Source: Octopus vulgaris (lineage: Eukaryota). Taken from it: a DNA stretch of 64,000 nt. The position numbers were made by a program, and so were the translations under genes. The stretch covers positions 38,874,001-38,938,000 of the forward strand of contig OX597829.1 of the NCBI GenBank assembly GCA_951406725.2, read 5' to 3'. Shown here piece by piece: positions 24,931 through 59,282 of the stretch. Each line of letters begins with the position of its first letter. Position 1 is the first letter of the stretch. The notes beneath the pieces were generated by a model. It was given only the letters and a program-made list of their open reading frames with translations. It ran no database searches and was not told the DNA's origin.

Positions 24931-27010
24931 ATTACAGGTATTCAGTATTTTATAAAAAGACTCATCAATAATTATCTAAAAGCTGACAAGATTGGGGCAA
25001 TTATAAATAGGAATAAAAACCATTATAGAGGCATGGTTTTATAACAACTTGATGATAAAATCAAAGAGCCTGACCGAATAAAATCAATTATTTAACCAAC
25101 TTCAAAGACCAATAATTTTTATGGATTACCTAAAGTTCATAAATCAAAAACAAATTCAAGGTAAATATAGAACATACGTTGAAATTCCAAAACCAAGACT
25201 TGAAATTCCAATCATTTCCAAGCCTACATCAAATACACAACACCTATTAAATATAATACTTAAACCATTATGAAAAATGGTGCCGAGCTTCATCTGAAAT
25301 GATATGGACTTTCTAAGTTACATATCAGAAAGAATACACCGGGAAACAATATTCAGCTTTGATATAACAAGTATCAGGCCATTGAGAATGAAATGGGTGA
25401 ATTTTTTTATGTACCAAATTTGATAGTCATTAACTCTAATGTTTTATCCTGACAATTCTTTGTTTTACAACATAGAAGAATTACATCATCACTTTCTGAA
25501 ATGCAATTCATGGTGTCTGATTATATTGTGAGTTTTCTTTTGTAAATCAATTTCTGTGAACCCAGGGACAGATCAAAGATTTGTGTTGTTAATAAATATG
25601 AGTTCTGTCGTGGAACTAATGCATCCCAGACAGCTCGAAATATCTATGAAGTGTTTGGTGAAGATGTGGTGAATGAGCACACTGTATGTCGATGGTTTGA
25701 GAAGTTCTGGTCTAGTGACTTTACTCTTAGAAATTAGCTCTGTGGTAGAGCTGAGACCAAGGTGGATAATGACGAACTGGAAAGCAGCAAGGTTTGATGT
25801 CTCGATTCCAACTGTATTGGACCATTTGAAACAAATCAGCAAGGTAAAGAAACTGGACAAGTGAGTACCACATGAACTTAATGAGCATTAAATGACATGT
25901 TATCTTGGAACTTGCTGTTCTTTGCTGTCATAGCATAAAAGCAAACCATTTTTGCATTGTATTGTTACAGGTGACAAAAAATGGATTCTTTTTAACAATA
26001 GCAAGTGTTCTGCTTGGTGGTTGGAGAAGGACAAAGTGCCAAAACACAATCCAAAAAAGAATATTCACCAGAAGCTAATGGTGCCGGTTTGGTGGTCCAG
26101 TGCTGGTGTCATCCACTGCAGCTTCATGAGACCTTATAAGTCAATTACAGCAGATGTATACATCAACCAATTGGATGAAATGATGAGTGAACTTGCAATT
26201 AAACAACTGAGATTGGTCAATAGAGACAGGCCAATTCTCTTGCAAGACAATGCACACAGAACGCTACTCAAGATACAGGAACTGAACTTGGAAGTACTCT
26301 GTCATCTACCATATTCACCAGACCTTGCACCAACTGATTATCACATTTTCCAGGCATTAAACAACTTTTTACAAGGAAAAAACTTTAAATCTGAAGAAGA
26401 TGCAAAAACAGCCTTTTGTGATTTCATCACCTCTTACTCTCCAGAATTCTTCACTGTTGGCATAAATAAGCTTCTGATAAAATGGCAAAATTGTGTTGAT
26501 AATTTAGGTGCATTCTTTGATTAACTTCATTGCTTTTTTGTTGAGATAAAGTAAAATAAACTTTCAGTTCAAAATCAGATATTTCATTTTTAATGACCTG
26601 ATACATACATCAACATCCCACATGACTTAGAAAGTGAAGCCATGAACTTCTGGTTGACAAAACACCCAAATCATATTCAAGAAAGATTCTCAAAGTACTT
26701 AATTTTAGAAATAATGAACTTAATACTTGAAAATAACCATTTCTTCTTTGATGATAATTTGTATTTACAAATAAAAAAAATGGCATTGAGTACAAAAGTA
26801 GCCTCTACATGTGCAGCACTTAAGTGATTTTTAGAGGATAAATTTTACTTCCCAACTAACAGAAACAGTCAATCAACAATCCTCCATATAGATTTTTTAA
26901 AAAACCCAATAAAGGTGGTATCAAGATGACTATTCTATCTTTCAGAACAAAAATCCCAAAGACTAAGAAACTTCTATTTTCTTCTAAATAGCTACATGCT
27001 GCAAGTAATG
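24560..27010 (+). mobile_element. Decayed Penelope-like RT interrupted by the mariner
   Basis: KADK (about 24980) and FYGLPKVHK (25117-25143). SFDITS|TYINIPH is split by the mariner. ILENNHFFFDDNLYLQIK..MALSTKVAST follows it. Confidence 0.8.
25374..26601 (+). mobile_element. Full-length decayed mariner (DD34D) transposon
   Basis: TA target duplications at 25372-73 and 26602-03. TIRs TCAGGCCATTGAGAATGAAAT and rc TCAGGTCATTAAAAATGAAAT. Transposase motifs IVTGD, LLQDNA and YSPDLAPTDY in ORF 25952-26524. The N-terminal part is frameshifted. Confidence 0.93.
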
Positions 27011-30969: not shown

Positions 30970-33374
30970 ATGTTGTGGTGTGTGTTAGTGCTCCATTCTA
31001 GTTTTCTATTCAGGCTAGGTTTATTTTATATTATGTGTGTAGCTTCTGTAATTTGTCTAATTGTTGCATCTGTTCTATGTGTGGACAATATTTTAATTTC
31101 TATGTTATTGATTGATCCCCCGTGTTCCTGTTTGGTGTGTTGGTACAGAATCTATGAGCTTTTACCTTCCTTGAGTTGTCTCCAATGTTCATTTACCCGC
31201 TCTCCTATGCTTCTTGCCATTTCCCCTACGTATGTCGTTGTCTTGTTACTGCATCGTCCCTCTATACATCTTATACTATAGACTACATTTCTGGCTTTAC
31301 AGTTTGTTTGTGGGCTAAATCTACATACAGTACAGTACTTATCCATACAGGGGGTTCTACTAAAAGGATAGGTTCTACCAATTATAGATTTGATAGGGTT
31401 GCCTGGCTTTTCAACAACCTTAATTCTTAGCTTAAGTTTGTCTAGGGTCCTTCTAAAGCGGTATGCCAGTTCACCTCCAGGGGTGGTGTCAACGAACATG
31501 ACACTCTGGTATTTATGGCTATCATACCAAGAGTTGGCCTTCCCTATTTTCTTTTTTGTCCTTTCTATAGTGTTCCATGACTTGTTCCTATAGAGTGGGC
31601 AAATCCCATTCCTATCATTACATAATATATTATCAAATTTCTTCATGGCTCCTTTGTATACTCTGATCCTTTCTTTATGGCTGTAACCCGAGAACTGCAA
31701 GCGGTGAATGAAATATTGTATGTGTCTCTTTAACTCTGTGGGCTCGCACATGCGTGACACATTTCTCATTATTCTGACGAGGTTTGCCATCAAAATATTG
31801 AATTTGGCATTGTCCGCAATGGCTGAGTTCCGGTGGATCAAGTATTTTGAGGCCATAGGTTTGGTATAGTATGAATGAAGGATTTGGGTTTTATTATTCA
31901 CAATTTCTAGCCAGAGTTCAGTGTCTAGTACTGGTAGTCTATGGTTGGGGTGTTTAGTGGGGTAGTCTATTGTGACCTTAATACTCTGGTAGATGGAGTT
32001 AGCTATTTGCTGGATGCTCTCCATAGTATTAGTTTCTATCACTATATCAACATTACTCTCTTGTGGGGGTGCCTTTACCACTATGTTGATATCAACATAG
32101 CGAGAGTACATGTTTACGAGTATGGAGTTCTGTGTTAGGCGTTCTTTAAGCCTTCTGTCCCACCATACCATGAAACAGTTGGCCACATCACTAGCGATAC
32201 TAACGCCGATGGCTGCCCCCTCGTCCTGGGCATATATTCTATTATTAAACTTAAACGTGTGGCCTTTTAGGGTAACTCTTATACTAGCTCCTAGTGCATG
32301 TGTGATCATTTTCTTTATCTGATGGACATTTGCGGGGCTCCGTATGGCTCTGGTCCATCCGCGCCATCTTTCTATATGTGTCTTCCTAGCCATAGAAGTA
32401 ATTGTGGGCAGTCTACCTCTTAAACATCTACTGGGGCAGAAACTACTAAGATTATGTTTATCTAAGTATTCATTATTACATGTCAGTCTAAGTAGGAGGC
32501 CCAGTTCTTCTGTGTTGACATTACGGAACTCCACCTGGCTCTCATTGATCATTTCCATGCACTTCTCCACTGCAAAATCTACGTCGATCGATGGGTATAG
32601 GGATACCACATCCATGCTACCCACCATACATCCTGTCAGGTCACAAGTGTTGTTACAGTCATCGATCCTGCTGAGGAGATCTGTGCTGTCACAAACATCA
32701 GGTGACATCCGGATTATAGGGCGTATGATCATTGAGAGGAAGTAGGAGATTCTGTAATTGCTAGCGATATTCGCTCCACAGACTGGTCTTGTTGGTGGTC
32801 CTGCTATAGGGTCAGTAATTACTTTATGGTCCTTGCAAAGTCCATACAGTGCTGGGATATTATTGTTCCAGGCTTGGAAATTATTTGCTGTACGTTTCTG
32901 GGGTCCCAGAACAATTGTCCACATCATCATGTGGGTGTTGAGGACCTTTTCTCTCTCCTCATGCGCCTGTACAGTTGTTATTTTTGTATTGGCGATATGA
33001 GGTTGCATTGCCTGGATGTAGTTCGGTAAGCTGTCTATTGACATCCTGTCGGACTTATCTGTGGGAAGGCATACCACCTCTCCATTCCTCGTGCGCTGAA
33101 TGAGCTTATGTAGGCAACATGCAGGTTTAATCCCGAGTTGTTGGGCCTCTGTCTTATTCTGTCTCTGTCTCTTAGTGTATAATCCTAAAATCTGTCTAAG
33201 TTTGGTCCTAGCTATAGTGAACTGTGCTTCCATATGGTCATTAGTATGTCTTGGGATGTAGACTCTTTTGTTGAAGGGTAATGTTGTTGGATAAATCCGG
33301 CTCATGCAGTAAGTTTTGTCACATACGTTGAAGAATTGAGTGTCAAAGGAGTGGGTATACATGTCAATGGTCAT
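30970..33374 (-). pseudogene. PLE reverse transcriptase / GIY-YIG endonuclease ORF, inactivated
   Basis: Motifs PTDKS, LYGLCKDHK, PTRPVCGA, SMDVVSLYPSI, QDEGAAIG and RYVD-INI (one Asp missing from YVDD). Cys linker CMDKYCTVC and VVYSIRC...YVGEMARSIGERVNEH. The frame continues past TAG (31152) and a TAA to RQITEATHI...LNRKLEW. A frameshifted Asn/Gly-rich N-terminus extends to about 33900. Confidence 0.9.
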
Positions 33375-33974
33375 TCTAGGGTTATCTTCATTATCGTTAC
33401 TGTTTCCATCATCAGCCTCCCTATTATTATTACCACCATTACCACTACTACTATTATTACTATTACCACCACAACTACCATCATTACTACTTCTACTGTT
33501 ACCACCACCACCACTACTACTACCACTATTATTGTTATTACCGTTATTCCTACCATTGCCATTATTACTATCATTCTGATATTTTCATTGTTCCTGTTTC
33601 TGATGTATGTGTTGTTCATATTAGTGTTGGGTTTTATGTCTGTTTGTTGGTCCCTGTCATTCCCTCTGTTGTGGTTGTTATTTTTGTTCCTACGAGTATT
33701 GTTATTATTATCTGTTTCAAGTCTACTGACTCCCTGTCCAAGGATCCTGTTGCATTCAACTTTATTTTCCATCGTGACCCCCATGACACAACTTTTATTT
33801 GTGTCTTTGTGACTATGGTTATCTGTGTGTGTGTTTGTGTGTTGGTTCTCCCTATAATTGTTGTTGTTGTTGCTGTTGTATACGATTTTTTTTCTCTCTG
33901 TTTATGTTTTTGTATCTATACAAAATGGCTGACGGTTACTAAGGAGAGACACAAATAAGAAAGAAGAAAACAAA

Positions 33975-35652: not shown

Positions 35653-36810
35653 TCAAGAATCGGAACATTCTACAGACTTGCTAAGTATATTTAGTTGTTT
35701 GTCAGCAATTTGTGGCTGATTAATTGTTGTTGTTTCTGCTGCTGCTGCTGCTGTTGTTGTTGTTGTTGTAGCTGCTACTCCTGGTGTTGTTGGTGGTTGC
35801 GATTCAGGTGACATTGTCGGTATAATAGTTGTTGCTGTTGTGGTTGAAGTTGTTGTTGTTGTTGTTGTTGTTGTTACTGCTGCAGTAGCTGCTATTGCTG
35901 TTGCTGCTGCAGGTGTGGCTGTTGTTGACGACGACGACGACGATGACGGTAACGATGACGATGACGATGATGACAATGATGACCAGGCTGCAGTTGCGGG
36001 AGACGTTGATGATGATGATGATGATGACAACAACAACGACGGTTGTTGCGCGGGCTGTAGTAGAGCAGCTGCTTCTGGAAGGAGATGATCTTGGTGAGGA
36101 GTGACTGTGGCGGTGGGAGGTGATGGAGATTGTTGTTGTTGTTGTTGAACTGGCACTTCATTTTGTTCCTGTTCCTCTTCTTCTTCTTCTTCTTCTTCTT
36201 CTTGGTGGTGCAATGGTGTTGGTGTTGTTGGTGACGGTGGTGATGGTGGTAGCATTGGTGGTGATATCACAACGGACATTTGTGGGTATTTGGAAATACT
36301 GTGTTCTAGCTCCTCTGAGGCACCACCTCCAGTGACTGCACCACTAGATCTCATTGCATTAGTGGCCTTCATGCTTGGTCTACTGCTGTCAAAAACACCG
36401 TTACCGTTTCCATAGCCATCACCATCGCTACCATTATCAATGTTTGTGCCATCATTGATGCTACCTTCATTAGCTTCCATCATTCCTTCTGTTACATCAG
36501 GAGGCACAACCGAAATGGAAAGGACTGGTAATGGACTGGAGGAATTTGACTGAAGACCAGCAGAAACAGGAAGAGTGGGTTGAGCTTGTTCAACCTTTTG
36601 ACGTTCTTCTTCTTGTTGATCAAGGCAATGCTGCAAACCTGCACAATAGTGTAGTAGCTGCATCATTAGTCGTTCATTTTGCTCATCAATCATTCTGATC
36701 TCTGCCTGATAGACTTTCTTCATAGCAGGATCATTAATGCTTTTCTCTTTCTTAGTCAACTGGCCCTTGTATTCTGTCGCTTGATCAATTTGTTCTTGGA
36801 CAATGCTTAC
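35653..36810 (-). CDS. PDZD8: Terminal coding exon of a PDZD8-like gene (C-terminal coiled coil plus low-complexity tail)
   Basis: Minus-strand polypyrimidine tract and acceptor ttgtttttgtttactttcag| at 36811. The exon reads VSIVQEQIDQATEYKGQLTKKEKSINDPAMKK...EQNERLMMQLLHYCAGLQHCLD. This aligns without gaps to the PDZD8 C-terminal coiled coil as I recall it (LQxEIDQExE...EEKETTD..KK...ERLQALTLLMIHYRAGI). Stop TGA at 35653-35655. The ORF-track start at 36912 lies in intronic SINE/TAA repeat. Confidence 0.75.
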   Translation of the reverse strand, partial: VSIVQEQIDQATEYKGQLTKKEKSINDPAMKKVYQAEIRMIDEQNERLMMQLLHYCAGLQHCLDQQEEERQKVEQAQPTLPVSAGLQSNSSSPLPVLSISVVPPDVTEGMMEANEGSINDGTNIDNGSDGDGYGNGNGVFDSSRPSMKATNAMRSSGAVTGGGASEELEHSISKYPQMSVVISPPMLPPSPPSPTTPTPLHHQEEEEEEEEEEQEQNEVPVQQQQQQSPSPPTATVTPHQDHLLPEAAALLQPAQQPSLLLSSSSSSSTSPATAAWSSLSSSSSSSLPSSSSSSSTTATPAAATAIAATAAVTTTTTTTTTSTTTATTIIPTMSPESQPPTTPGVAATTTTTTAAAAAETTTINQPQIADKQLNILSKSVECSDS

Positions 36811-37342
36811 CTGAAAGTAAACAAAAACAACAATTTTAATAACAATGAAAACAACAACAACAACAATAATAATAATAATGATGATAATAATAATTCTTTC
36901 TACAATAGGCACAGGATCTGAAATTTTTGGGAGAGGAAGCTACTTGGCTGCATCGACCTCAGTACATTCTGAGTTCAAATTCCGCCAAGGTCGACTTTGC
37001 CTTTCATCCTTTTCGGGGGTCAATAAATTAAGTACCTGTTACGCACTGGGGTCGATATAATCAACTTAATTCGTTTGTCTGTCCTTGTTTGTCCTCTCTG
37101 TGTTTAGCCCCTTGTGGGTAGTAAAGAAATAGATAAATAATGATAATAATAATTGTTCCTACCATAGTCTCAAGACCTGAAGTTTTAGAGGAAAGGGTTA
37201 TTTATTGCATAAAAATTCAGTGCTCAATTGATGCTTATTTCATTGACCCCGAAAGAATGAAAGGAAGAAAAAAATTGGCCTCTACAGAATTTGAATACAG
37301 AAAGTAGAGCTGGAAGAAATCCTGCTAAATATTTTGTCCAGC

Positions 37343-47790: not shown

Positions 47791-48395
47791 ACACATTTTG
47801 TAATAAGTAGTTGGAAAGGAAGTAATCTTAAGAAGTTCTTTTTCACTACCTCTCTCTCTCCTCAGCTCATTCTCTCTCTCTCACATACACACATTCTCTT
47901 TGCACATTTGTTACAGTAACAAACAAAAATAATTTCACTATAAACAACCACCACAAGAGTAAGAAAACAATGTTCTAACAGTTCTTACAACATTTTAGTA
48001 AAAGGTGTATGTGCATGTGTGTCCATATACCCATTCAAAGACAGACAGACACACACACAAACTGAGGTCTCCTTGTGGCTCGCGAGAGTATGCATTTGCT
48101 CCTGGAAAGTTTTTTTGCCAAAAAGCAATTCTAAGCAAGACTTTTTTTTTGTTTTGTTTCATGGGAGACTAACAGTTATCTATGTATTCAAGTCTGCCAT
48201 CTCCATGCCACCATTGTTGTGCAAAGGAAATACAAAAGGCTGTACAGTTTGGCATTCATGTTGTTACAAGACACTTCTATCAGAATGCTGCAAGAGTTCC
48301 TGTTTGACACTAACAATTTCTCTAAGCCACTGTTTCTTTATTTTATCAACCCCAGATGGATGAAAATTAAAGATGAATATGATGGTTCATGGATC

Positions 48396-49157
48396 TGAAT
48401 GGTAAGATAATGTCACCATCATTAGTGATCACTCCAAACACAATCATGTTGCCTGAATGTTTGATTTTTATCACTCTCAGTACATGTTTTGCGGGGCACA
48501 GCAAGTCAATGGCCGTTCTGTGTGTTCACCACCTGATCCTGATAGAAATTTTTCTAATCTGAGAAAAACCAAAGCATGTTTGGTTGGAGAGGATACAAGA
48601 ATTTGTTCAGAAGTTTCATAGTACAGTCTCTCCTCTTGTCCTTGGTGGCTTGGGATAAAAACTGGCCCTTTCTCATCTTGTATGAGGAATACTGAATGTC
48701 TTCATGCACTACCTGCCTGATAAGAAACTCAAACACTCCCATGTTCTTGGCAATGGACTTGATTGTCTTGGAGGGATCATTGTGAATCATAGCCTAGATC
48801 TCACCAACAAATTCTGGGGTTCTTTTCTTATCAGAACAATCAGAGTGAGTTTTCCAAGCTGCCATACCTTCATAATCACCACTAGACTCACCCAACTCTT
48901 TCTGAATCCTCTGCACTGTCCTCAGATTGACAGTCAAACATTGAAGTGTTGGTATTGGAGCTTTTGGCATGAATGCTAAGTAGTACAGCACGTTGTTTCC
49001 AAATTTCTAGCAGACTGAATTGCACCATGGTGCAGTTTTTCTCAGATGGTGCCCAACTGACCCTACTATACTGTGTAGTCAACAAAATCAAAAACAAGCA
49101 ATGCACATGTGTGAAATTAGAAATATAAAATGGCAACAACTTACCCATCGCACCCTA
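48396..49157 (-). mobile_element. N-terminal half of a Tc1/mariner-superfamily DD37D (maT-like) transposon
   Basis: Terminus TA-TAGGGTGCGATGGGTAA, HTH region, WFFSD and IVFGVITNDGDIILPF. Ends abruptly at 48396. Confidence 0.8.
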
Positions 49158-49200
49158 TATATGTGTGTATCTATGTATGTACATACACATGAAGATTATT

Positions 49201-49727
49201 TACATTATTTACATTTGACAAATATTTGTCCTCATCTTGTTTGTTGTTGACACAACATTTCAGCTGATATACCCACCAGCCTTCATCAGGTGTCTTGGGG
49301 AAATTATGAACCTGGGTTCTCATTCCTAAGGTCTTTTTTGATATTATTATTATTATTCAGGTCACTGCCTGGAATCGAACTCAGAATCTTGGGGTTAGTA
49401 GACTGTGCTCTTAACCACTACGCCATATGCCCGTGGACATATGGCGTAGTGGTTAAGAGTGTGGGCTACTAACCCCAAGATTCTGAGTTCGATTCCAGGC
49501 AGTGACCTGAACAACAACAACAACAACAATAACAGCAGCAGCAACTACAACAACAACAGCAGCAGCAACAACAACATTGCAAAATGCCTTAGGAATGAGA
49601 ACCCAGGTTTGAAATTTCCCCAAGACACCTGAAGAAGGCTGGAGGGTATATCAGCAACAAGATGAGGACAAATATCTGTCAAATGTAAATAATGTACATA
49701 ATTCCTCATCTCTTAAATATAGAACTG
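49201..49727. mobile_element. Head-to-head inverted pair of a tRNA-headed element with a hammerhead-bearing tail
   Basis: Centre about 49433. Each arm has A box TGGCGTAGTGG, B box GAGTTCGATTCC, an (AAC/AAT)n tract, then GACAC-CTGA(T/A)GA-AGGCTG...CAGC. Confidence 0.8.
49249..49294 (-). ncRNA. Minimal hammerhead motif
   Basis: GACAC-CUGAUGA-A-GGCUG...CAGCU-GAAA-UGUU|GUGUC, with a 5-bp stem I. Confidence 0.65.
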
Positions 49728-50648
49728 TAATACACATGAATATATGTATGTTGTATGCATGAATGCTCAGCATTTCTCTCATTACCTCATGTATGCAGGC
49801 ATGTGTGTGTGTGTGTATATATATATATATACATATATGTGTGTGTGTGTGTGTGTGAGTGTGTATAAGTATTTACTTTTGCAATAGATACATTTTTCTC
49901 ATTTGTAAGCCAAAATACACAGTGTGCATTTCACTATCATTTAGTGTCTGTATCCCATGATGATGATGGTGTATTTGTGCATGTGTGTGTGGGCAGAGAG
50001 TGGTAAAGGACTAAACACAAAATTTGAATATGATACATATAAAAATAAAGAAAATATAGCGAAATTAAGTACCTGCTCTATGGACCCTTATGGTCCATGA
50101 AATGAGACTAATTAATTTTACTTTTAAGAGACCTCTTCTATGAAGAGGTAAAACTCAAATAATAATCTCTAATTAAATTATGAAAATGTAGAATTGAAAG
50201 GGCTAGTGGTGATTGTGGGGGGAAGGAGGAGGAGGGCTATATAATGTGTTATATGTTTGTATGTGTATGTACATGTGTGATGTTATATTATTGTTTAGAG
50301 AGAGAGAGAGAGGGAGGGAGGGAAAGAGAGATAATATATATAAACACATACACATAGAAAGGGATACATCAGTGTGTGTGTGTGTGTGTATATGCACATA
50401 TTGATACATACATGTATAAAGATAGGGATATATATATATATATCCCTATATACATACACACACACACACATATATGAAAAGATAAAATTCTTTAACATAT
50501 CTGTAACTATAAGTTATATATATATTATGGAGATGTACTTGCATAGCAAGTGACCTGATCTGAGAACATGTGCTGGAACAAAAACAATTGCAGCATGGAA
50601 GGTATTTATAAGCCACCGTTAGATTCACTTCAACATTTAAATTTAATT

Positions 50649-50695
50649 TGCCAAAATATTTCAGTTACTTTGAGACCATGACCTGATCACTGACA
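50649..50695 (-). ncRNA. Hammerhead-like motif with swapped G3-C8 core
   Basis: UGUCA-GUGAUCA-GGUCAU...GUAACU-GAAA-UAUUU-UGGCA. Confidence 0.45.
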
Positions 50696-50830
50696 AAATT
50701 CTGTGCTTGTCAATGGTGGGTTCCAGAAATTCCAAGCCAGAAACTACAGCCTAGAAGACAAGCCTCATCCTGGAAGATCTGCAGATCTTGACAAGGACAA
50801 CCCATACAGGTATAGAAAAATGGGCATTAA

Positions 50831-51051
50831 CCCTTTCGTTACTGTATTTATTTTGAGATGATCTGTGTTTCTTTCAATTACTTTAAATATAACAAAGAAT
50901 TTAGTAAAATAACTTAGTTATCACTAAGCTAGTGTTAGGAACATAAATTATGACTTAGGTTTGGTGGAAGATTTTAATTCAAAACTTATGAAAACAAGAC
51001 ATTTATACTACAGAGCCAAAGTAGGTTTCAGCCGAATTGGTATCGAAAGGT
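50831..51051. mobile_element. piggyBac-like MITE
   Basis: TTAA on both sides; TIR CCCTTTCGTTAC / GTATCGAAAGG(T). Confidence 0.75.
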
Positions 51052-52036
51052 TTAAAAATTGATGATGATGATAATTAGAGGATGATGATGATAATTAGAG
51101 GATGATGATGATGATGAACACTTTAAAAATCTAGTAATCACTCAACTAAGATGTTCCAGCATACATATTTATTTGAAGTAAGTAGTGTGTTTAAGAGCAG
51201 AATACTCCAGAGATGTGGCAAGACTTAATTTCTGGTTCTCTTTGGTCAGTTATAGTTTAGAATTTCTTCTAGTTCCTTGCAACCATTTTCTTTATTGTTG
51301 TGACAATGATAGTTATTTCCTAAATAACCAAAATTCTTCATAGCCTTAACTATGTTTTCCAAAATCTGCAATCTAATAAGTTGAAAGTTCATGGAAGTAA
51401 GAAGTAAAAAAAAAAGGAATTGTTTAAGAAATAAATTAAGTGAAAGCTGTAGTTCAGTTTGTTTTAAAAGCAGACAGTTAATTTGTTATAAGCCTTATAA
51501 TACTGGAAGAATGGTTTCTGGTAACATTAGCAGAATGACTTTATTGTAGCAGAAGAATTGTTGATCTTCCATGGAGGAAATTAACAAGCATCAGATAATG
51601 GTATGTTCTCAAACAATTAATGCTGCATAATGTGGTTTGAAATCTTCTCAAGGTAATTGATGCATGTATGAGAGAGAGAGGGGGGGGAAGAGCTTGCATG
51701 TGTGAGTGTGTAAGTGTAGTGTAGTGTAAACATTGTAGATGCGTTGTGTTGTGTGTTAGAGTTCTTGTGTGAATAATACAAATTTGTGTATGTGTTATAA
51801 TTGTGTGCAAGTACATGTTGCGCCAGTGTACTTGTATCAATGTGTGTGAATGTAAGTGTGAATGCATGTGTTTGTGAGTATTATACAACAAGTGCTTGCA
51901 TATGTGAAAGAGAGAGTGAGAGGGTATTTGAGAATGTATGTGTGTGTGTGTGTGTACACACACGTACATTAGCGTGTCAGTGCAAATGTGCTAAATGCTT
52001 GTATGTGTTTGAGAGTATTATACAAGTGTTTGCATA

Positions 52037-52075
<39 letters not shown>

Positions 52076-53577
52076 GTATTTTAGAATGTGTGTGTGTGTG
52101 TGTACACACATGTACATTAGTGTGTGAATGCAAATGTATGTGCTAAATGCTTGTATGAGTTCATGCATGTGTGAGTGTGTGAATATGTGTTTATATACTT
52201 ACTTATGAATGTGTTTGTGAGGATATCTATGTTTGTATTGTGTGTGTGTGTGTGTGTGTGTGCAAATAAATGAATATGAATAGATTTAGTGTATGTGTGG
52301 AGGGAGGGAGGGGGGAGGGGGTATTTTTGAGAAAGCCAGGAACAAAAGAGTTTGAAGAATGTACTGCTGTGATTGTTGGATTGTCTCAGAAACAATTGAT
52401 GGTGATAGGTAAAAGAGAAAATAACAATCAAAAGAATGATCTTTTGAAACTGTGGTCATCATTTTCTTTATTTTGAATAGAAATTCCTCCAGGAACCACA
52501 GAAGACATTTAATGGGTACTTTCTTTTACTTGTTTCAGTCATTTAGACTGCGGCCGGCCGGCCATGCTACGGCACTGCCTTGAAGAACTTATAATCAAGC
52601 GAATCAACCCCAGTACATATCGTTTTTCTTTTTTAAAACCTGGTACTTATTCTATCAATCTCTTTTGACAAACTGCAAAGTTATGGGGCTGTAAACACAC
52701 CAATATCACTTGTCAAGCAGTGGTAGGGGACAAACAACACACACACACACATACATACAAATGGCTTCTTTCAGTTTCCATCTACCAAATCCACTCTTAA
52801 GGCTTTGGTCAGCCTGAGGCCCTAGTAGAAGACGGGTGCCTAGCACTTCACTAATTACATATATTTTTGTTAGCTCTAATCTGAGGGTATTTGCTCAACT
52901 CATAGCCTTCATAATACTATTGTTCACAAAATGCATGACGTAGCATAATACTTATTTCTTTATTGCCCACAAGAGGCTAAACAGAGAGGGGACAAACAAG
53001 GACAGACAAACGGATTAAGTCGATTATATCGACCCCAGTGCGTAACTGGTACTTAATTTATCAACCCTGAAGGGATGAAAGGCAAAGTTGACCTCGGTGG
53101 AATTTGAACTCAGAACGTAACGGCAGACAAAATACCTCTAAGTATTTCACCTGGCGTGCTAACGTTTCTGCCAGCCCGCCGCCTTTATGCATGACATAGC
53201 ATAATACTGCCAAGGAATGGTGGAACTATAAGCAGTAATTGAAATAGAAGAAAGAATATTGAGCTACTAATTAAAATTGCATCATTATCTTTTACTTGTT
53301 TCAGGTACCACCTTGAAGGGTTTTAGTCGAACAAATCGACCCTAAGACTTTTGCTTTTTAAACCTAGTACTTATACTATTGGTCTCTTTTGCATACGGGA
53401 ATGTAACTTTGTGGTGGTGGGAAACACAGACACAGTGAGAGAGAGAGAGAGAGAGAGATAGACAGACAAAAAGCTTCCTTTGGTGTTTTACACACGCACA
53501 CACACACACGTGTGTGGAGGCACATGGCCTAGTGGTTAGAGCAGCAGACTCGTGGTCGAGGGATTGCGGGTTTGAAT

Positions 53578-53739
53578 CTAACAAAAAATTTAGTAAAATA
53601 ACTTAGTTATCATTCAGCTAGTGATAGGATCATAAATTGTGACTAAGGTTCGGTGGAAGATTTTAATTAAAAACTTATGAAAACAAAACATTTGTAATCA
53701 AAGCCAGAGGTGGTTTCAGCCGGGTTGGTATTGAAAGGG
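53578..53739. mobile_element. Partial copy of the same piggyBac-like MITE
   Basis: Matches 50890-51051; ends GAAAGGG-TTAA. Confidence 0.7.
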
Positions 53740-54904
53740 TTAAAGGCAATAAAAGTGTAAACAGGTAAAACTAAGTGAATAAAATATAAAATAATACTGC
53801 AAAATTCTGGTTTCTTTTAGATGCTCCCTTGTAAACATAAACATGCATACATATGTTGTATGTGTGCACGAGAGAGAGAGAGAGAGGGTTGGAAGCAAAA
53901 CTTCATAAATAATTACTCTGAGTTCTTTGTCTCCAATTTTTAGATGATTATGAAAATCAGGACCGATGATTGCTCCAGTTTGCATTATTGTTCAAAGATC
54001 AAAAGTGAAAAATTTTTAAATAACAATTTGTAAAGTTTCAGCTACCAATATAACAATATATGATAATATAGCCTGTGCCGGTGGTACGTAAAAAGCACCA
54101 TCCGATTGAGGCCGTTTGCCAGCCTCGTCTGGCACCTGTGCCGGTGGCACGTAAAAACACCCACTACACTCACGGAGTGGTTGGCGTTAGGAAGGGCATC
54201 CAGCCATAGAAACATTGCCAGATCAGACAGGGGCCTGGTGCAGCCTTCTGGCTTCCCAGACCCCAGTCGAACCGTCCAACCCATGCTAGCATGGAAAGCG
54301 GACGCTAATAATAAAATTCTATTTTTAGTTTTGAGCACTCTTTTTCATTTACTTTATACACATGGACACACACACACACACAAACTATCTATGTGCATAT
54401 TTGTAGCATGTTTGTATATTAGTTTATATGTGATTGAATGAGCCAGGAAGGACAGGAAAAAGTGAAATAAAATAAGAAAAAAAGATGACTAGGCATACAA
54501 ATGAAATAGAGGAATAAATAAATGAATAAAATGATAATGAGACTAAATAATGAATGAATGGAAGCAAAAATGTTTATGTTGCATGAATGGTACACAAATG
54601 TGTTGTCAGAGGTTGGCTAAGCTTTCAGAGTAGTGCTACACCTCAAGTAGGTGTAAGAGGAGGGAGAGGAAAGGCTTAAGGGTAGGGTATAATAATCCTT
54701 TGAACTATAGACACAGGGTCTGAAATTTTGGGGGAGGGGTAAGTCAATTACATCAACCCCAGTGTTGGTACTTAATTTATCAACCCCAAAAGGATGCAAG
54801 TCAAAGTTGACCTCAACAGAGTTTGAACTCAGAACATAAGGGTTTTTCCAGCAGAGGAATCTACTTGAATGTTTTAAGTGTGAGTCAGACTTTGTGTGTA
54901 AACG

Positions 54905-55080
54905 AGGCGCAGGAGTGGCTGTGTGGTAAGTAGCTTGCTTACCAACCACATGGTTCCAGGTTCAGTTCCACTGCGTGGCACCTTGGGCAAGTGCCTTCTA
55001 CTATAGCCCTGAGCCGACCAAAACCTCGTGAGTGGATTTGGTTGACGGAAACTGAAAGAAGCCAGTCATATATATGCATG

Positions 55081-55114
<34 letters not shown>

Positions 55115-55537
55115 TCATGCTCGGAATGGTCAGTGGCAAGAGAGGAAGAGGCTGACCAAGAACCCACTGGCTTGACACCATCAAGAGTGATACCAGAATG
55201 GACATAGCCAATCTGAAAGAAGCGGCCTAGGATAGAACTGACTGGAGGACACTGATCCATCAAGTAACCGAGAGTCAACTTCAACTGAGTGGATAGATAG
55301 ATAGTATGTGTGTGTGTGTGTGTGTGTATATGTTTGTGTGTGTGTTTGTCCCCTCCCCCCAACATCGCTCTACAACTGATGCTGGTGTGTTTATGTCCCC
55401 GTAACTTAGTGGTTCGGCAAAAGAGACCGATAGAATAAGTACTAGGCTTACATAGAATAAGCCCTGGGGTCGATTTGCTCGACTAAAGGCGGTGCTACAG
55501 CATGGCCAGTCAAATGACTGAAACAAGTAAAAGTAAA
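54905..55537 (+). mobile_element. SINE family A containing the RTE insertion
   Basis: Head AGGCGCAGGAGTGGCTGTGTGGTAAG; tail gactgaaacaagtaaaag. Confidence 0.85.
55113..55304 (+). mobile_element. 3' tip of an RTE (BovB-like) LINE inserted in a SINE microsatellite
   Basis: IMLGMVSGKRGRG*PRTHWLDTIK...DRTDWRTLIHQVTES, then a (GATA)n tail. Confidence 0.75.
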
Positions 55538-56090
55538 ATAGGAAGGGAAAGTCTCTCCACTTTTATTTAGGATTTCTTCATTGTGCATAAATTGCACTTG
55601 CTACATCACTTTTCTTTGTCTGTTTAGTAATGTTCTACTTGATTGTGGTGTTACCATATTTTACGACATCAGTTAACATAGTATATAGTGTAAACATTCA
55701 AACATCAACACTATCTTCGCAAATTGTATTCTCATATCACACAAAACTTTTGCTCCTCTAAACTTGTCTTTATACATAAGTTGGACGATTATTTTTAAAT
55801 GTAAATTTTAGTCTAAAAAATTTGATATTTATGTCAGAAAATATATCCTATGATCCTTTACATTCCCAATAACCTTTGGTATGAGGTGGAGTTGCACTTC
55901 TCTATGTCTAAATAAGACAAGCTGAGTATATTGGTCTTTGAATGTATTCTTTTTCATGAGGCCAATATGTATCTTTTGCCATCATAAGAATATCTAAAAC
56001 ATTAACTATATGCCCCAACTTCTTTTCAAGCATACATCATTCTGAGGGTAGTATTGTGTGGATCTACAATTACACTTATATTAAAATGAG

Positions 56091-56144
<54 letters not shown>

Positions 56145-56483
56145 ATATGTATGTGTGTATACATATACATACATACATATACACACACACATTTGATTCC
56201 GGGACTGGATAGTGCATTGTGTTCTTGAGCAAGACACTTTATTTCATGTTGCTCCAGTTCACTAACTGTAGAAATGAGTTGCGACATTTCTGGTGTCAAG
56301 CTGTGCCAACCTCTGCCTTTACTCTGGACAGCATCAATGGAATGGAGAAGGGAAGCAGGTAAGCATGGCCAACTGCTAGTCTTCCATAAACAACCTTGCC
56401 CAAACTTGTGCCAAGGGGGGTATCTTTCTAGGTGCAATCTTATTGGTCATTCAAGACCAAAAGGGATCTTTACCATATATATA

Positions 56484-57010
56484 TCATCATCATCATCATC
56501 ATCATTTAGCGTCCGTTTTCCATGCTAGCATGGGTTGGACGGTTCAACTGGGGTCTGGGGAGCCCGAAGGCTGCACCAGGCCAGTCAGATCTGGCAGTGT
56601 TTCTACAGCTGGATGCCCTTCCTAACGCCAACCACTCCGAGAGTGTAGTGGGTGATTTTATGTGCCACCGACACAGGTGCCAGACGAGGCTGGCGAACGG
56701 CCACGCTCGGATGGTGTTTTTATGTGCCACCGACACAGGTGCCAGACGAGGCTGGCAGACGGCCACGCTCGGATGGTGTTTTTATGTGCCACCGACACAG
56801 GTGCCAGACGAGGCTGGCAGACGGCCACGCTCGGATGGTGTTTTTATGTGCCACCGACACAGGTGCCAGATGAGGCTGGCGGACAGCCACGATCGGATGG
56901 TGTTTGTTACGTCCCCAAAGCACGGAGGCCAGTCTATGCAGTACTGGCTACGGCCACGTTCGGATGATTTTCTTGTGTGCCACCGGCACTGGTACCACAA
57001 AGATACAAAT
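56484..57010 (-). mobile_element. SINE family C ((GAT)n tail) with an internal 62-bp tandem array
   Basis: Shares ctacagctggatgcccttcctaacgccaacc with 1-370, 5880-6280, 7840-8050, 40714-41050, 54070-54307 and 63710-63845. Confidence 0.8.
56657..56905. repeat. Minisatellite, 4 x 62 bp
   Basis: tgtgccaccgacacagg recurs at 56661, 56723, 56785 and 56847. Confidence 0.95.
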
Positions 57011-57011
57011 T

Positions 57012-57061
<50 letters not shown>

Positions 57062-57166
57062 TTATATATGCATGTATATATACATGTAGATGTAGGTACG
57101 TACATATATGTATGTATGTATGCATATATTTTATTTATTAAATTATATATATATATATATATACAT

Positions 57167-57197
<31 letters not shown>

Positions 57198-57923
57198 CAC
57201 ACACACACACGTAATTCCACACTTACTATTGCCAAAATTAAATAAACAGTGTGTATCACATAACATACATTCACACAGACATATACTCACTCGCAAGAAT
57301 ACAAAAGAAACACAACTACATATTCAGTTTCTCTCTCACTCCCTTCCACACACACACACAAACACACACTCCCTTCCACCAACTGAAAATAGGTCACACA
57401 TGGCTAATTCCATCATGCTTAATTACAATTATCTTTCATAATCGGAAAGCCTAATTAATTCACTCTACACTGTGTAAAGAAATTCATAGAACCTTCTGGA
57501 AGCATATCAAACTTGTTCTTACAGCTTTGTTACGTTGTTAGAACACTGTTATTTAAACCGTTTATTAATTGGCACCTTCTCTTCTGATTATAGATTCAAT
57601 CAATCCTAATGAGGAATGAGGAAAGCAAAACAACTTAGAGATAGTGAAATACTTTACAAATGGAGTTTTTGATGATGATGATGATGATGTGGATGATGAT
57701 GATGATGGTGACAATAGCAACGATGATGGTGGTGGTGATGATTATTGTGGTAAACATGACTGATGAAAATGATGATGATGATGGCAGGAGTGGCAATGGT
57801 AATAATAATGATATTGGTGATGATGGCAATGATGATGATCATAGTAATGGTGGTCAGGATGATGATTTATTTCTCAAATAAAAATAGAATAGTGAAAAAT
57901 TTAGAATACACAAATATATAACA

Positions 57924-58463
57924 CATCTTCCTACACATCCTCAGACTCAAACCAGAGGCCTACATCAAGTGCCTGGAGGAGGTAGTGCTGCCCTGGGTCA
58001 AGATGGTGCCTGCTGGAAGACCCTATGTCTGGCAACAGGACTCTGCACCATGTCACACAAGCAGAAGAACCCAGTCATAGCCGTCAGACAATCTCTGCAA
58101 CCATCACTCCTAACATCTGACTACCTAACTCCCCAGACTGCAATCCCCCGGATTATTATGTGTGGGGCACAGTTGAGCAAGAGACCAATAAAATCCCTTG
58201 TAGTATCAATAATGAACTGAAAGCAAGAATTATGGCAGCATTCACCAACTTAAACAAGGAGACTATCCAAAGAGTTGCAGGAGATTCTGAAGTTGTCTGG
58301 AGGCTGTGGTTGAAGCCAATGGCGATTTCATTGAATAAATTTACTCTTTAGTATTCCAAGATATTTTTATGTAATTTTGGTAAATATATCTGTTAAAAGG
58401 AGATGTCAGTGTTATTTTCATTTTTGCATAATTTAGATGACAGTTTATTCACTGCAACCTCTG
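57924..58463 (+). mobile_element. C-terminal half of a DD37D (maT-like) transposon
   Basis: IFLHILRLKPEAYIKCLEEVVLPW...VWQQDSAPCH...PNSPDCNPPDYYVWG. Ends in a TIR-like sequence (rc CAGAGGTTGCAGTGAATAA). Confidence 0.82.
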
Positions 58464-58499
58464 TGTGTGTGTATGTGTATGTATGTATGTATATGTATG

Positions 58500-58547
<48 letters not shown>

Positions 58548-58598
58548 TACATATATATATGTAAGAGTACATATACCCCAGCCTGTTGTTGTTATTAC

Positions 58599-58634
<36 letters not shown>

Positions 58635-59282
58635 TGCATGCCCACACTCACAAACATATCAGAAATCATACTGCAGCATGGTTGTTGTTGTTATATTAGA
58701 ATAGTTTTAATGACGGATAAAAATAGCAAAGAATGAATTTAAATGCCAGCATGTACGAGATAGATTGACAGATAGTGAAGGAGAAGGGAGGAGGTGTTTA
58801 TGCAGACATTGCATCTTTTTTTGTCATCTCATGTCCATTACACTTTTATTACAAGTCTTAGTACTTTAACTGTGACCTTCATTTTTCAAGTGAAACAGCA
58901 AGTGGTAGCATATTTGATGTAGAGAGTATCAAAAAATAACTAAAACAGAATATCTAAAATAAATCTTATTAAAAAAAAACATGTTTATCTTTGAAACAAA
59001 TATAGGTGACAGCTCTGCTTGTACAGCAAAGTTTATGCATCACTAAGCAGGTCAGATCACACAAAAACATGTCTGGAGTTCTCTCTTGCATTTGATATAT
59101 TAAGTAAAATTATATCAATTCATTGAGCTAATATTTTTTTTTTTTTTTTTTTTTACTGCATAAATTTTTCAAAGTATGTATTTTTTTTATTTTTTTACAT
59201 GGTCACAGTCATTGAACTGAAACATATAAAAGAATAAAAGAATGTCATCTCTGAATTAACCTCAGTGAACTTTTTTTGTTAA

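Follow-up and report, generated by a model that had tools for sequence, protein, structure and literature searches.

How do the two ends of a single DNA transposon come to lie on opposite strands, 9.5 kb apart? The question is raised by a 64,000-nucleotide stretch of the Octopus vulgaris genome (GenBank assembly GCA_951406725.2, contig OX597829.1, forward-strand positions 38,874,001 to 38,938,000; hereafter the window, position 1 being its first letter), where a dead element resembling the maT/DD37D family of Tc1/mariner transposons is present as two halves within the gene PDZD8. A first-pass annotation, made from the letters alone, had proposed that the segment 48396-57925 was inverted with one breakpoint inside the element. 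As described below, it is well supported that the halves are one element divided by a real germline rearrangement, because they abut exactly, have diverged equally, have junctions that are bridged in sequencing reads and would rarely form such a pair by chance. An old end-joining inversion of 48396-57925 with a 2-bp microhomology is the simplest route to this arrangement and probably the one that was taken.

The coordinates, strands and junction letters first given for the two halves were the same on re-examination (Table 1), and each half does hold one terminus. The left half contains the 5' terminal repeat, the DNA-binding region and the first catalytic aspartate and ends in codon 212; the right half contains the region of the second and third catalytic aspartates, the stop codon and the 3' terminal repeat. 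The break falls after the first catalytic aspartate and before the second. When the halves are aligned to the other family members, they abut with an exact 2-bp overlap in all 13 of the intact paralogs with alignments that reach both breaks (58 paralog loci were examined), and on P0012, a homologous transposase that is intact, residue 211 is the last one covered by the left half and residue 212 the first one covered by the right half. Outside CpG-like columns, the left half differs from the family consensus at 49 of 673 positions (7.3%) and the right half at 30 of 493 (6.1%; Fisher p 0.48). The continuous reading frame that had been claimed for the joined halves holds across the joint itself, but not elsewhere, as both halves have stops and frameshifts. 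The dinucleotide beside the element is TA at the 5' end and TG at the 3' end.

Table 1. Features of the split element and its surroundings (window positions)
Feature	Position	Strand	Basis or remark
5' half of dead maT/DD37D-like transposon	48396..49157	-	consensus 1-765, 89% identity; P0012 residues 30-211
3' half, same family	57924..58461	+	consensus 764-1304, 91% identity; P0012 residues 212-349
Left junction, 2-bp overlap (CA, element strand)	48396..48397	-	paralog alignments, junction letters, contig bridge
Right junction, 2-bp overlap (CA)	57924..57925	+	paralog alignments, junction letters, contig bridges
TA beside 5' terminal repeat (expected target duplication)	49158..49159		3' partner is TG
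8.8-kb interior, host intron DNA, probably inverted	49160..57923		paralog alignments, repeat content, skew
Short fragment resembling a SINE, 20 bp left of left break	48328..48376	+	not extended across reconstructed joint
Last coding exon of PDZD8	35656..36810	-	homologue mapping
Previous PDZD8 coding exon	offset 111462-111656, beyond window	-	homologue mapping

The family to which the halves belong was defined by a consensus built from 23 near-full paralogs. This consensus is 1,304 bp long, has TA on both sides and contains a single 349-amino acid frame with the catalytic residues D158, D250 and D288, i.e., DD37D; the same D-D37-D spacing is present in 14 of the 15 homologues checked, the fifteenth having missed the search pattern. 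The terminal inverted repeats are imperfect, with 22 of the first 26 bases matching between the consensus ends. Homologues of the frame of one paralog are Tc1/mariner transposases of 349-355 amino acids that carry PF13358/PF01498, and the nearest solved structure to paralog L030 is Sleeping Beauty (E 3.6e-5). A direct Pfam scan of two decayed copies, paralog L030 and a 51-amino acid piece from the window, gave no match. In the portion of the published description available to us (bioRxiv 10.1101/2022.10.13.512200), maT/DD37D elements of the Tc1/mariner group are about 1.3 kb long and have a transposase of about 346 amino acids, terminal repeats of 13-48 bp and the DD37D motif. The octopus family, with 1,304 bp, 349 amino acids, repeats of about 26 bp and DD37D, is like the elements in that portion and, judged from this sequence comparison, would fit maT/DD37D by motif, length and terminal repeats; unlike them, the window copy is dead and split.

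The family is star-like in structure and large, with about 6,000 first-look candidates for each half in the 2.80-Gb genome, 40 of which were scored. Of the 58 paralogs, 16 belong to a common internal-deletion form about 890 bp in length, in which consensus positions of about 243-675 are missing; the deletion ends and fillers vary slightly. Paralog L030 has a 359-codon stop-free frame (L030:1217-2296, minus strand) over most of the transposase, with the catalytic residues changed, and at two other loci the element's 3' end is present a further time, in inverted orientation, beside the main copy (L032:1314-1437 and L050:2545-2767).

In a family of this size, two independent insertions could each be truncated by a deletion and come to abut by accident. 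Several observations would agree with this and count against a single divided element. Truncation is common, at least 12 of the 58 paralogs terminating inside the element, and one of the 58, L029, also terminates at consensus base 765, beside a microsatellite, so this base can become an end by plain deletion. A short TA/CA-rich run precedes the right half, as it does at other truncation points, and the best matches of the right half are enriched for the internal-deletion form (16 of 29). The 2-bp overlap is weak when taken alone, since a random joint gives at least two such bases with P = 0.16. In addition, when 16 deletion-form copies are compared with 31 full ones, no column is diagnostic apart from the deletion itself, and so, a common origin of the halves is not provable by subfamily. 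Against two independent copies, no site in the right half distinguishes the deletion form from full copies. Their expected number is also low, 0.006-0.19 such pairs per genome or about 1e-6 per window, on assumed inputs of 6,000-12,000 copies, each truncated class making up 15-30% of them, a distance of 10-20 kb and an abutment window of 5 in 1,200. About 460 kb of non-focal sequence contained only one other family copy plus one distant relative, and the missing part was nearby in none of the 10 truncated paralogs examined (about 11 kb on each side; at least 15 paralogs are truncated in all). We consider an accidental pair to be improbable.

A second possibility is that the arrangement results from mis-assembly or is a variant private to the animal that was sequenced. 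Twenty of the 24 listed sequencing runs contain part of the stretch. At the left junction (region 47830-49180 examined), a contig of run X2 covers 48111-48436 with zero differences; among the contigs listed, this is the only run that bridges this junction, and it may be the source of the assembly. At the right junction (region 57400-57962 examined), however, single contigs of X1 and X4 span 57754-57962. Run X1 has organism label A and is another sample, while X4 has organism label B and differs from the window by substitutions and a 13-bp indel. Pieces of the left half are also present in X4 and X16, with one difference. The presence of the right junction in a second sample and under a second organism label implies that the arrangement did not arise in assembly and that it predates the split between A and B. 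Mis-assembly, which the first-pass annotation had wished to see excluded, is therefore largely refuted by the right-junction contigs, and we give it, together with a private variant, next to no credence.

The reads also provide two points on the other side. The left-flank contigs of X17, X4 and X16, which differ by about 1% from the window, end at 48365 in a fragment that resembles a short interspersed element (SINE), and none of those listed bridges 48396. Furthermore, the uninverted state was in none of the runs examined. A missing contig over a junction proves nothing about the arrangement. Run X18 covers only 57400-57615, and X11 (organism C) has no single-copy cover at 92%. The flank variants of X17 (label A) at 47900-48365 are the same as those of X4 (B) and X16 (D), so there is no simple correspondence of labels to haplotypes. 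The joints of the internal-deletion form of the family are also present in all four runs examined at the left junction.

If one element has been divided, what kind of event divided it? Inversion of 48396-57925 is the sole single event that rejoins the halves. Among paralog-adjacent alignment pairs between 44 and 64 kb, the opposite-strand pair at 48400/57920 ranks top (26+7+3 pairs), and there is no third recurrent breakpoint in the 0.71-Mb library used. A transposon needs both of its ends to move; thus, the element was presumably once whole, and the split state is the derived one. We suggest that an intact copy entered the last PDZD8 intron at a TA dinucleotide belonging to a microsatellite, and that later two DNA breaks occurred, one of them within the element, after which the intervening piece was rejoined in the inverted orientation. 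The joining would have been by end-joining, for which a 2-bp inverted microhomology and a 2-bp staggered cut are indistinguishable starting points here. The event would be younger than the insertion, which is 6-7% from the consensus, and older than the A/B label split, whose flanks are about 1% apart; fixation would have preceded that split.

The transposon itself might be suspected of having caused the inversion, either by ectopic recombination between inverted copies or by aberrant transposition. Its copy number is high, and this intron contains a second family copy at a distance of about 17 kb. However, ectopic recombination produces a pair of complete chimeric copies, and aberrant transposition puts element ends at the breaks, whereas here one break is in the middle of the element's gene and the other is in non-family DNA. 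The second intron copy shares only 2 non-CpG variants with the split element over 769 aligned bases. Since there is neither a second copy nor an element end at the other break, and since the other intron copy shares so few variants, we take the element to be a marker; it would have been a passive bystander, and a causal role is very improbable. A repeat-recombination inversion (RRMI type) was also considered and rejected, as no inverted family copies lie across both breakpoints and the outer sides are non-family DNA. Likewise, the DNA that flanks the breaks on the outside is single copy and contains neither a pair of inverted repeats nor a transposon end.

The interior of the segment, which contains single-copy stretches, an old repeat (72-81% identical to its paralogs), younger repeats (93-94%) and microsatellites, is more difficult to explain. 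Three results from it and its joints disagree with a simple inversion. First, purine-rich tracts inside the segment are 8 purine to 0 pyrimidine on the plus strand, the same polarity as in the PDZD8 introns outside it (36811 to offset 248730), where they are 55 to 9 on this strand, which is the template strand; a flip without later change predicts the opposite polarity (p about 2e-7). Second, the lightly masked 5-mer strand scores of the interior are positive, like those of the gene. Third, the reconstructed second joint gains nothing on a SINE profile built from 104 copies (16.0 versus 16.0-16.2 bits). The proposal of an inversion with one breakpoint inside the element stands as to one split element and real junctions, but the interior tracts are unflipped and the reciprocal joint restores no recognisable element. 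The SINEs of the PDZD8 introns themselves have an orientation bias of 51:27.

These results would suggest a more complex event, with at least three breakpoints or two nested inversions, in which one half, with some of its flank, was moved and inverted while the greater part of the interior retained its orientation. The GC skew of the interior, which is positive as in the flanks, and the second joint, which is not seamless on the SINE test, agree with it as well. On the other hand, such an event requires more breaks, and the recurrent third breakpoint that it calls for is not present among the paralog-adjacent pairs of the 0.71-Mb library. The tracts are mostly near-perfect microsatellites, and such microsatellites are short-lived. 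The AT skew of the interior is +0.015 to +0.021 versus a gene mean of +0.040 to +0.055; under strict masking of repeats and low complexity, it falls to -0.007 over the 2,243 remaining bases, versus +0.049 across 32 blocks of the gene and +0.064 to +0.106 for the nearest three, although the likelihood ratio of this comparison is just 0.75-1.6 either way. Substitutions on the plus strand have a bias of the same sign in both halves (T>C 10 versus A>G 7 in one and 6 versus 2 in the other), as expected after an old inversion; the changes are few and the bias is not significant. A search for a donor locus with three stretches of the interior, about 3.7 of its 8.8 kb, returned dispersed repeats only. 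Taken together, the interior evidence is consistent with an old inversion followed by new microsatellites and likewise with a complex event during which the bulk of the interior stayed where it was. We consider the complex event to be unlikely, but a serious competitor, and prefer the simple inversion, after which the strand-biased microsatellites of the interior would have arisen.

One explanation of the tracts deserves mention as a tentative proposal, which we think possible but would not expect to be correct. The split fossil would both date and polarise the inversion without an outgroup, and PDZD8 transcription would have fully re-imposed strand polarity on the purine microsatellites (8:0) within less than 7% divergence, while the skew of the complex DNA was merely neutralised. 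If this is true, split fossils across the genome could serve as a clock for the rebuilding of intronic strand asymmetry in the octopus.

The rearrangement has parallels elsewhere. According to the available portion of Lee et al. (2008, PMC2603318), an L1 or Alu element spans one breakpoint in 63 of 252 human-chimpanzee inversions, the other breakpoint being independent of repeats, and microhomology was proposed as the cause of these one-breakpoint retrotransposon inversions. The same portion reports 49 recombination-mediated inversion loci of 166 bp to 81 kb, and there are intronic inversions as well. The octopus case resembles these in its size, 9.5 kb being within that range, in having a transposon across one breakpoint and in being intronic. 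It differs from what is reported there in that it involves a DNA transposon in a mollusc and in that the inversion is deduced solely from the fossil rather than by comparison with an uninverted genome. In Drosophila, staggered-break inversions have been attributed to end-joining, with inverted duplications at the breakpoints (Ranz et al. 2007, PMC1885836, in the part available). The likeness to these lies in end-joining without a causal repeat and in the same letters being present, inverted, at both breakpoints; the difference is that the duplications described in that part span genes or long stretches, whereas the octopus overlap is 2 bp and indistinguishable from chance microhomology. The split fossil is an already described kind of small intronic rearrangement. 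We found no paper on this locus in the open-access literature.

The biological consequences for the host gene appear to be small. The annotation had presumed an intron of PDZD8, and exon mapping over the window plus 200 kb of neighbouring DNA agrees. Two PDZD8 homologues have exons that align collinearly to the minus strand between offsets 248730 and 35656, and within the open frame 35653-36939 a run of 73 amino acids matches PDZD8 of Octopus bimaculoides at 100% identity. The split element is in the last coding intron, which is 74.6 kb long, and no exon of the two mapped homologues has a match inside the segment. This is a small, old, purely intronic rearrangement of a parasitic element, with no exon inside it and no evident effect on PDZD8 or sign of function. 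Its interest is that it provides a clean example of how transposon fossils can record rearrangements where an outgroup is lacking, and a genome-wide count of split copies could measure the rates of small inversions in cephalopods.

Three other features were observed in the window. A 540-bp palindromic repeat (49190-49729) lies beside the 5' end of the transposon; a search of Rfam with 47800-59000 gave 50 matches, all of them under the gathering score and on microsatellites, and none for the palindrome. On the minus strand, the left arm of this palindrome has a CTGATGA-stem-GAAA arrangement, which we take to be like the core of a hammerhead ribozyme, and the right arm is a mutated copy of it. 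Downstream of the PDZD8 stop codon, an 810-amino acid frame (31152-33584, minus strand) resembles, to judge by eye from its motifs, a reverse transcriptase of the Penelope type that ends in GIY-YIG. Finally, a 196-amino acid frame on the plus strand (25934-26524) looks by eye like a fragment of a mariner (DD34D) transposase.

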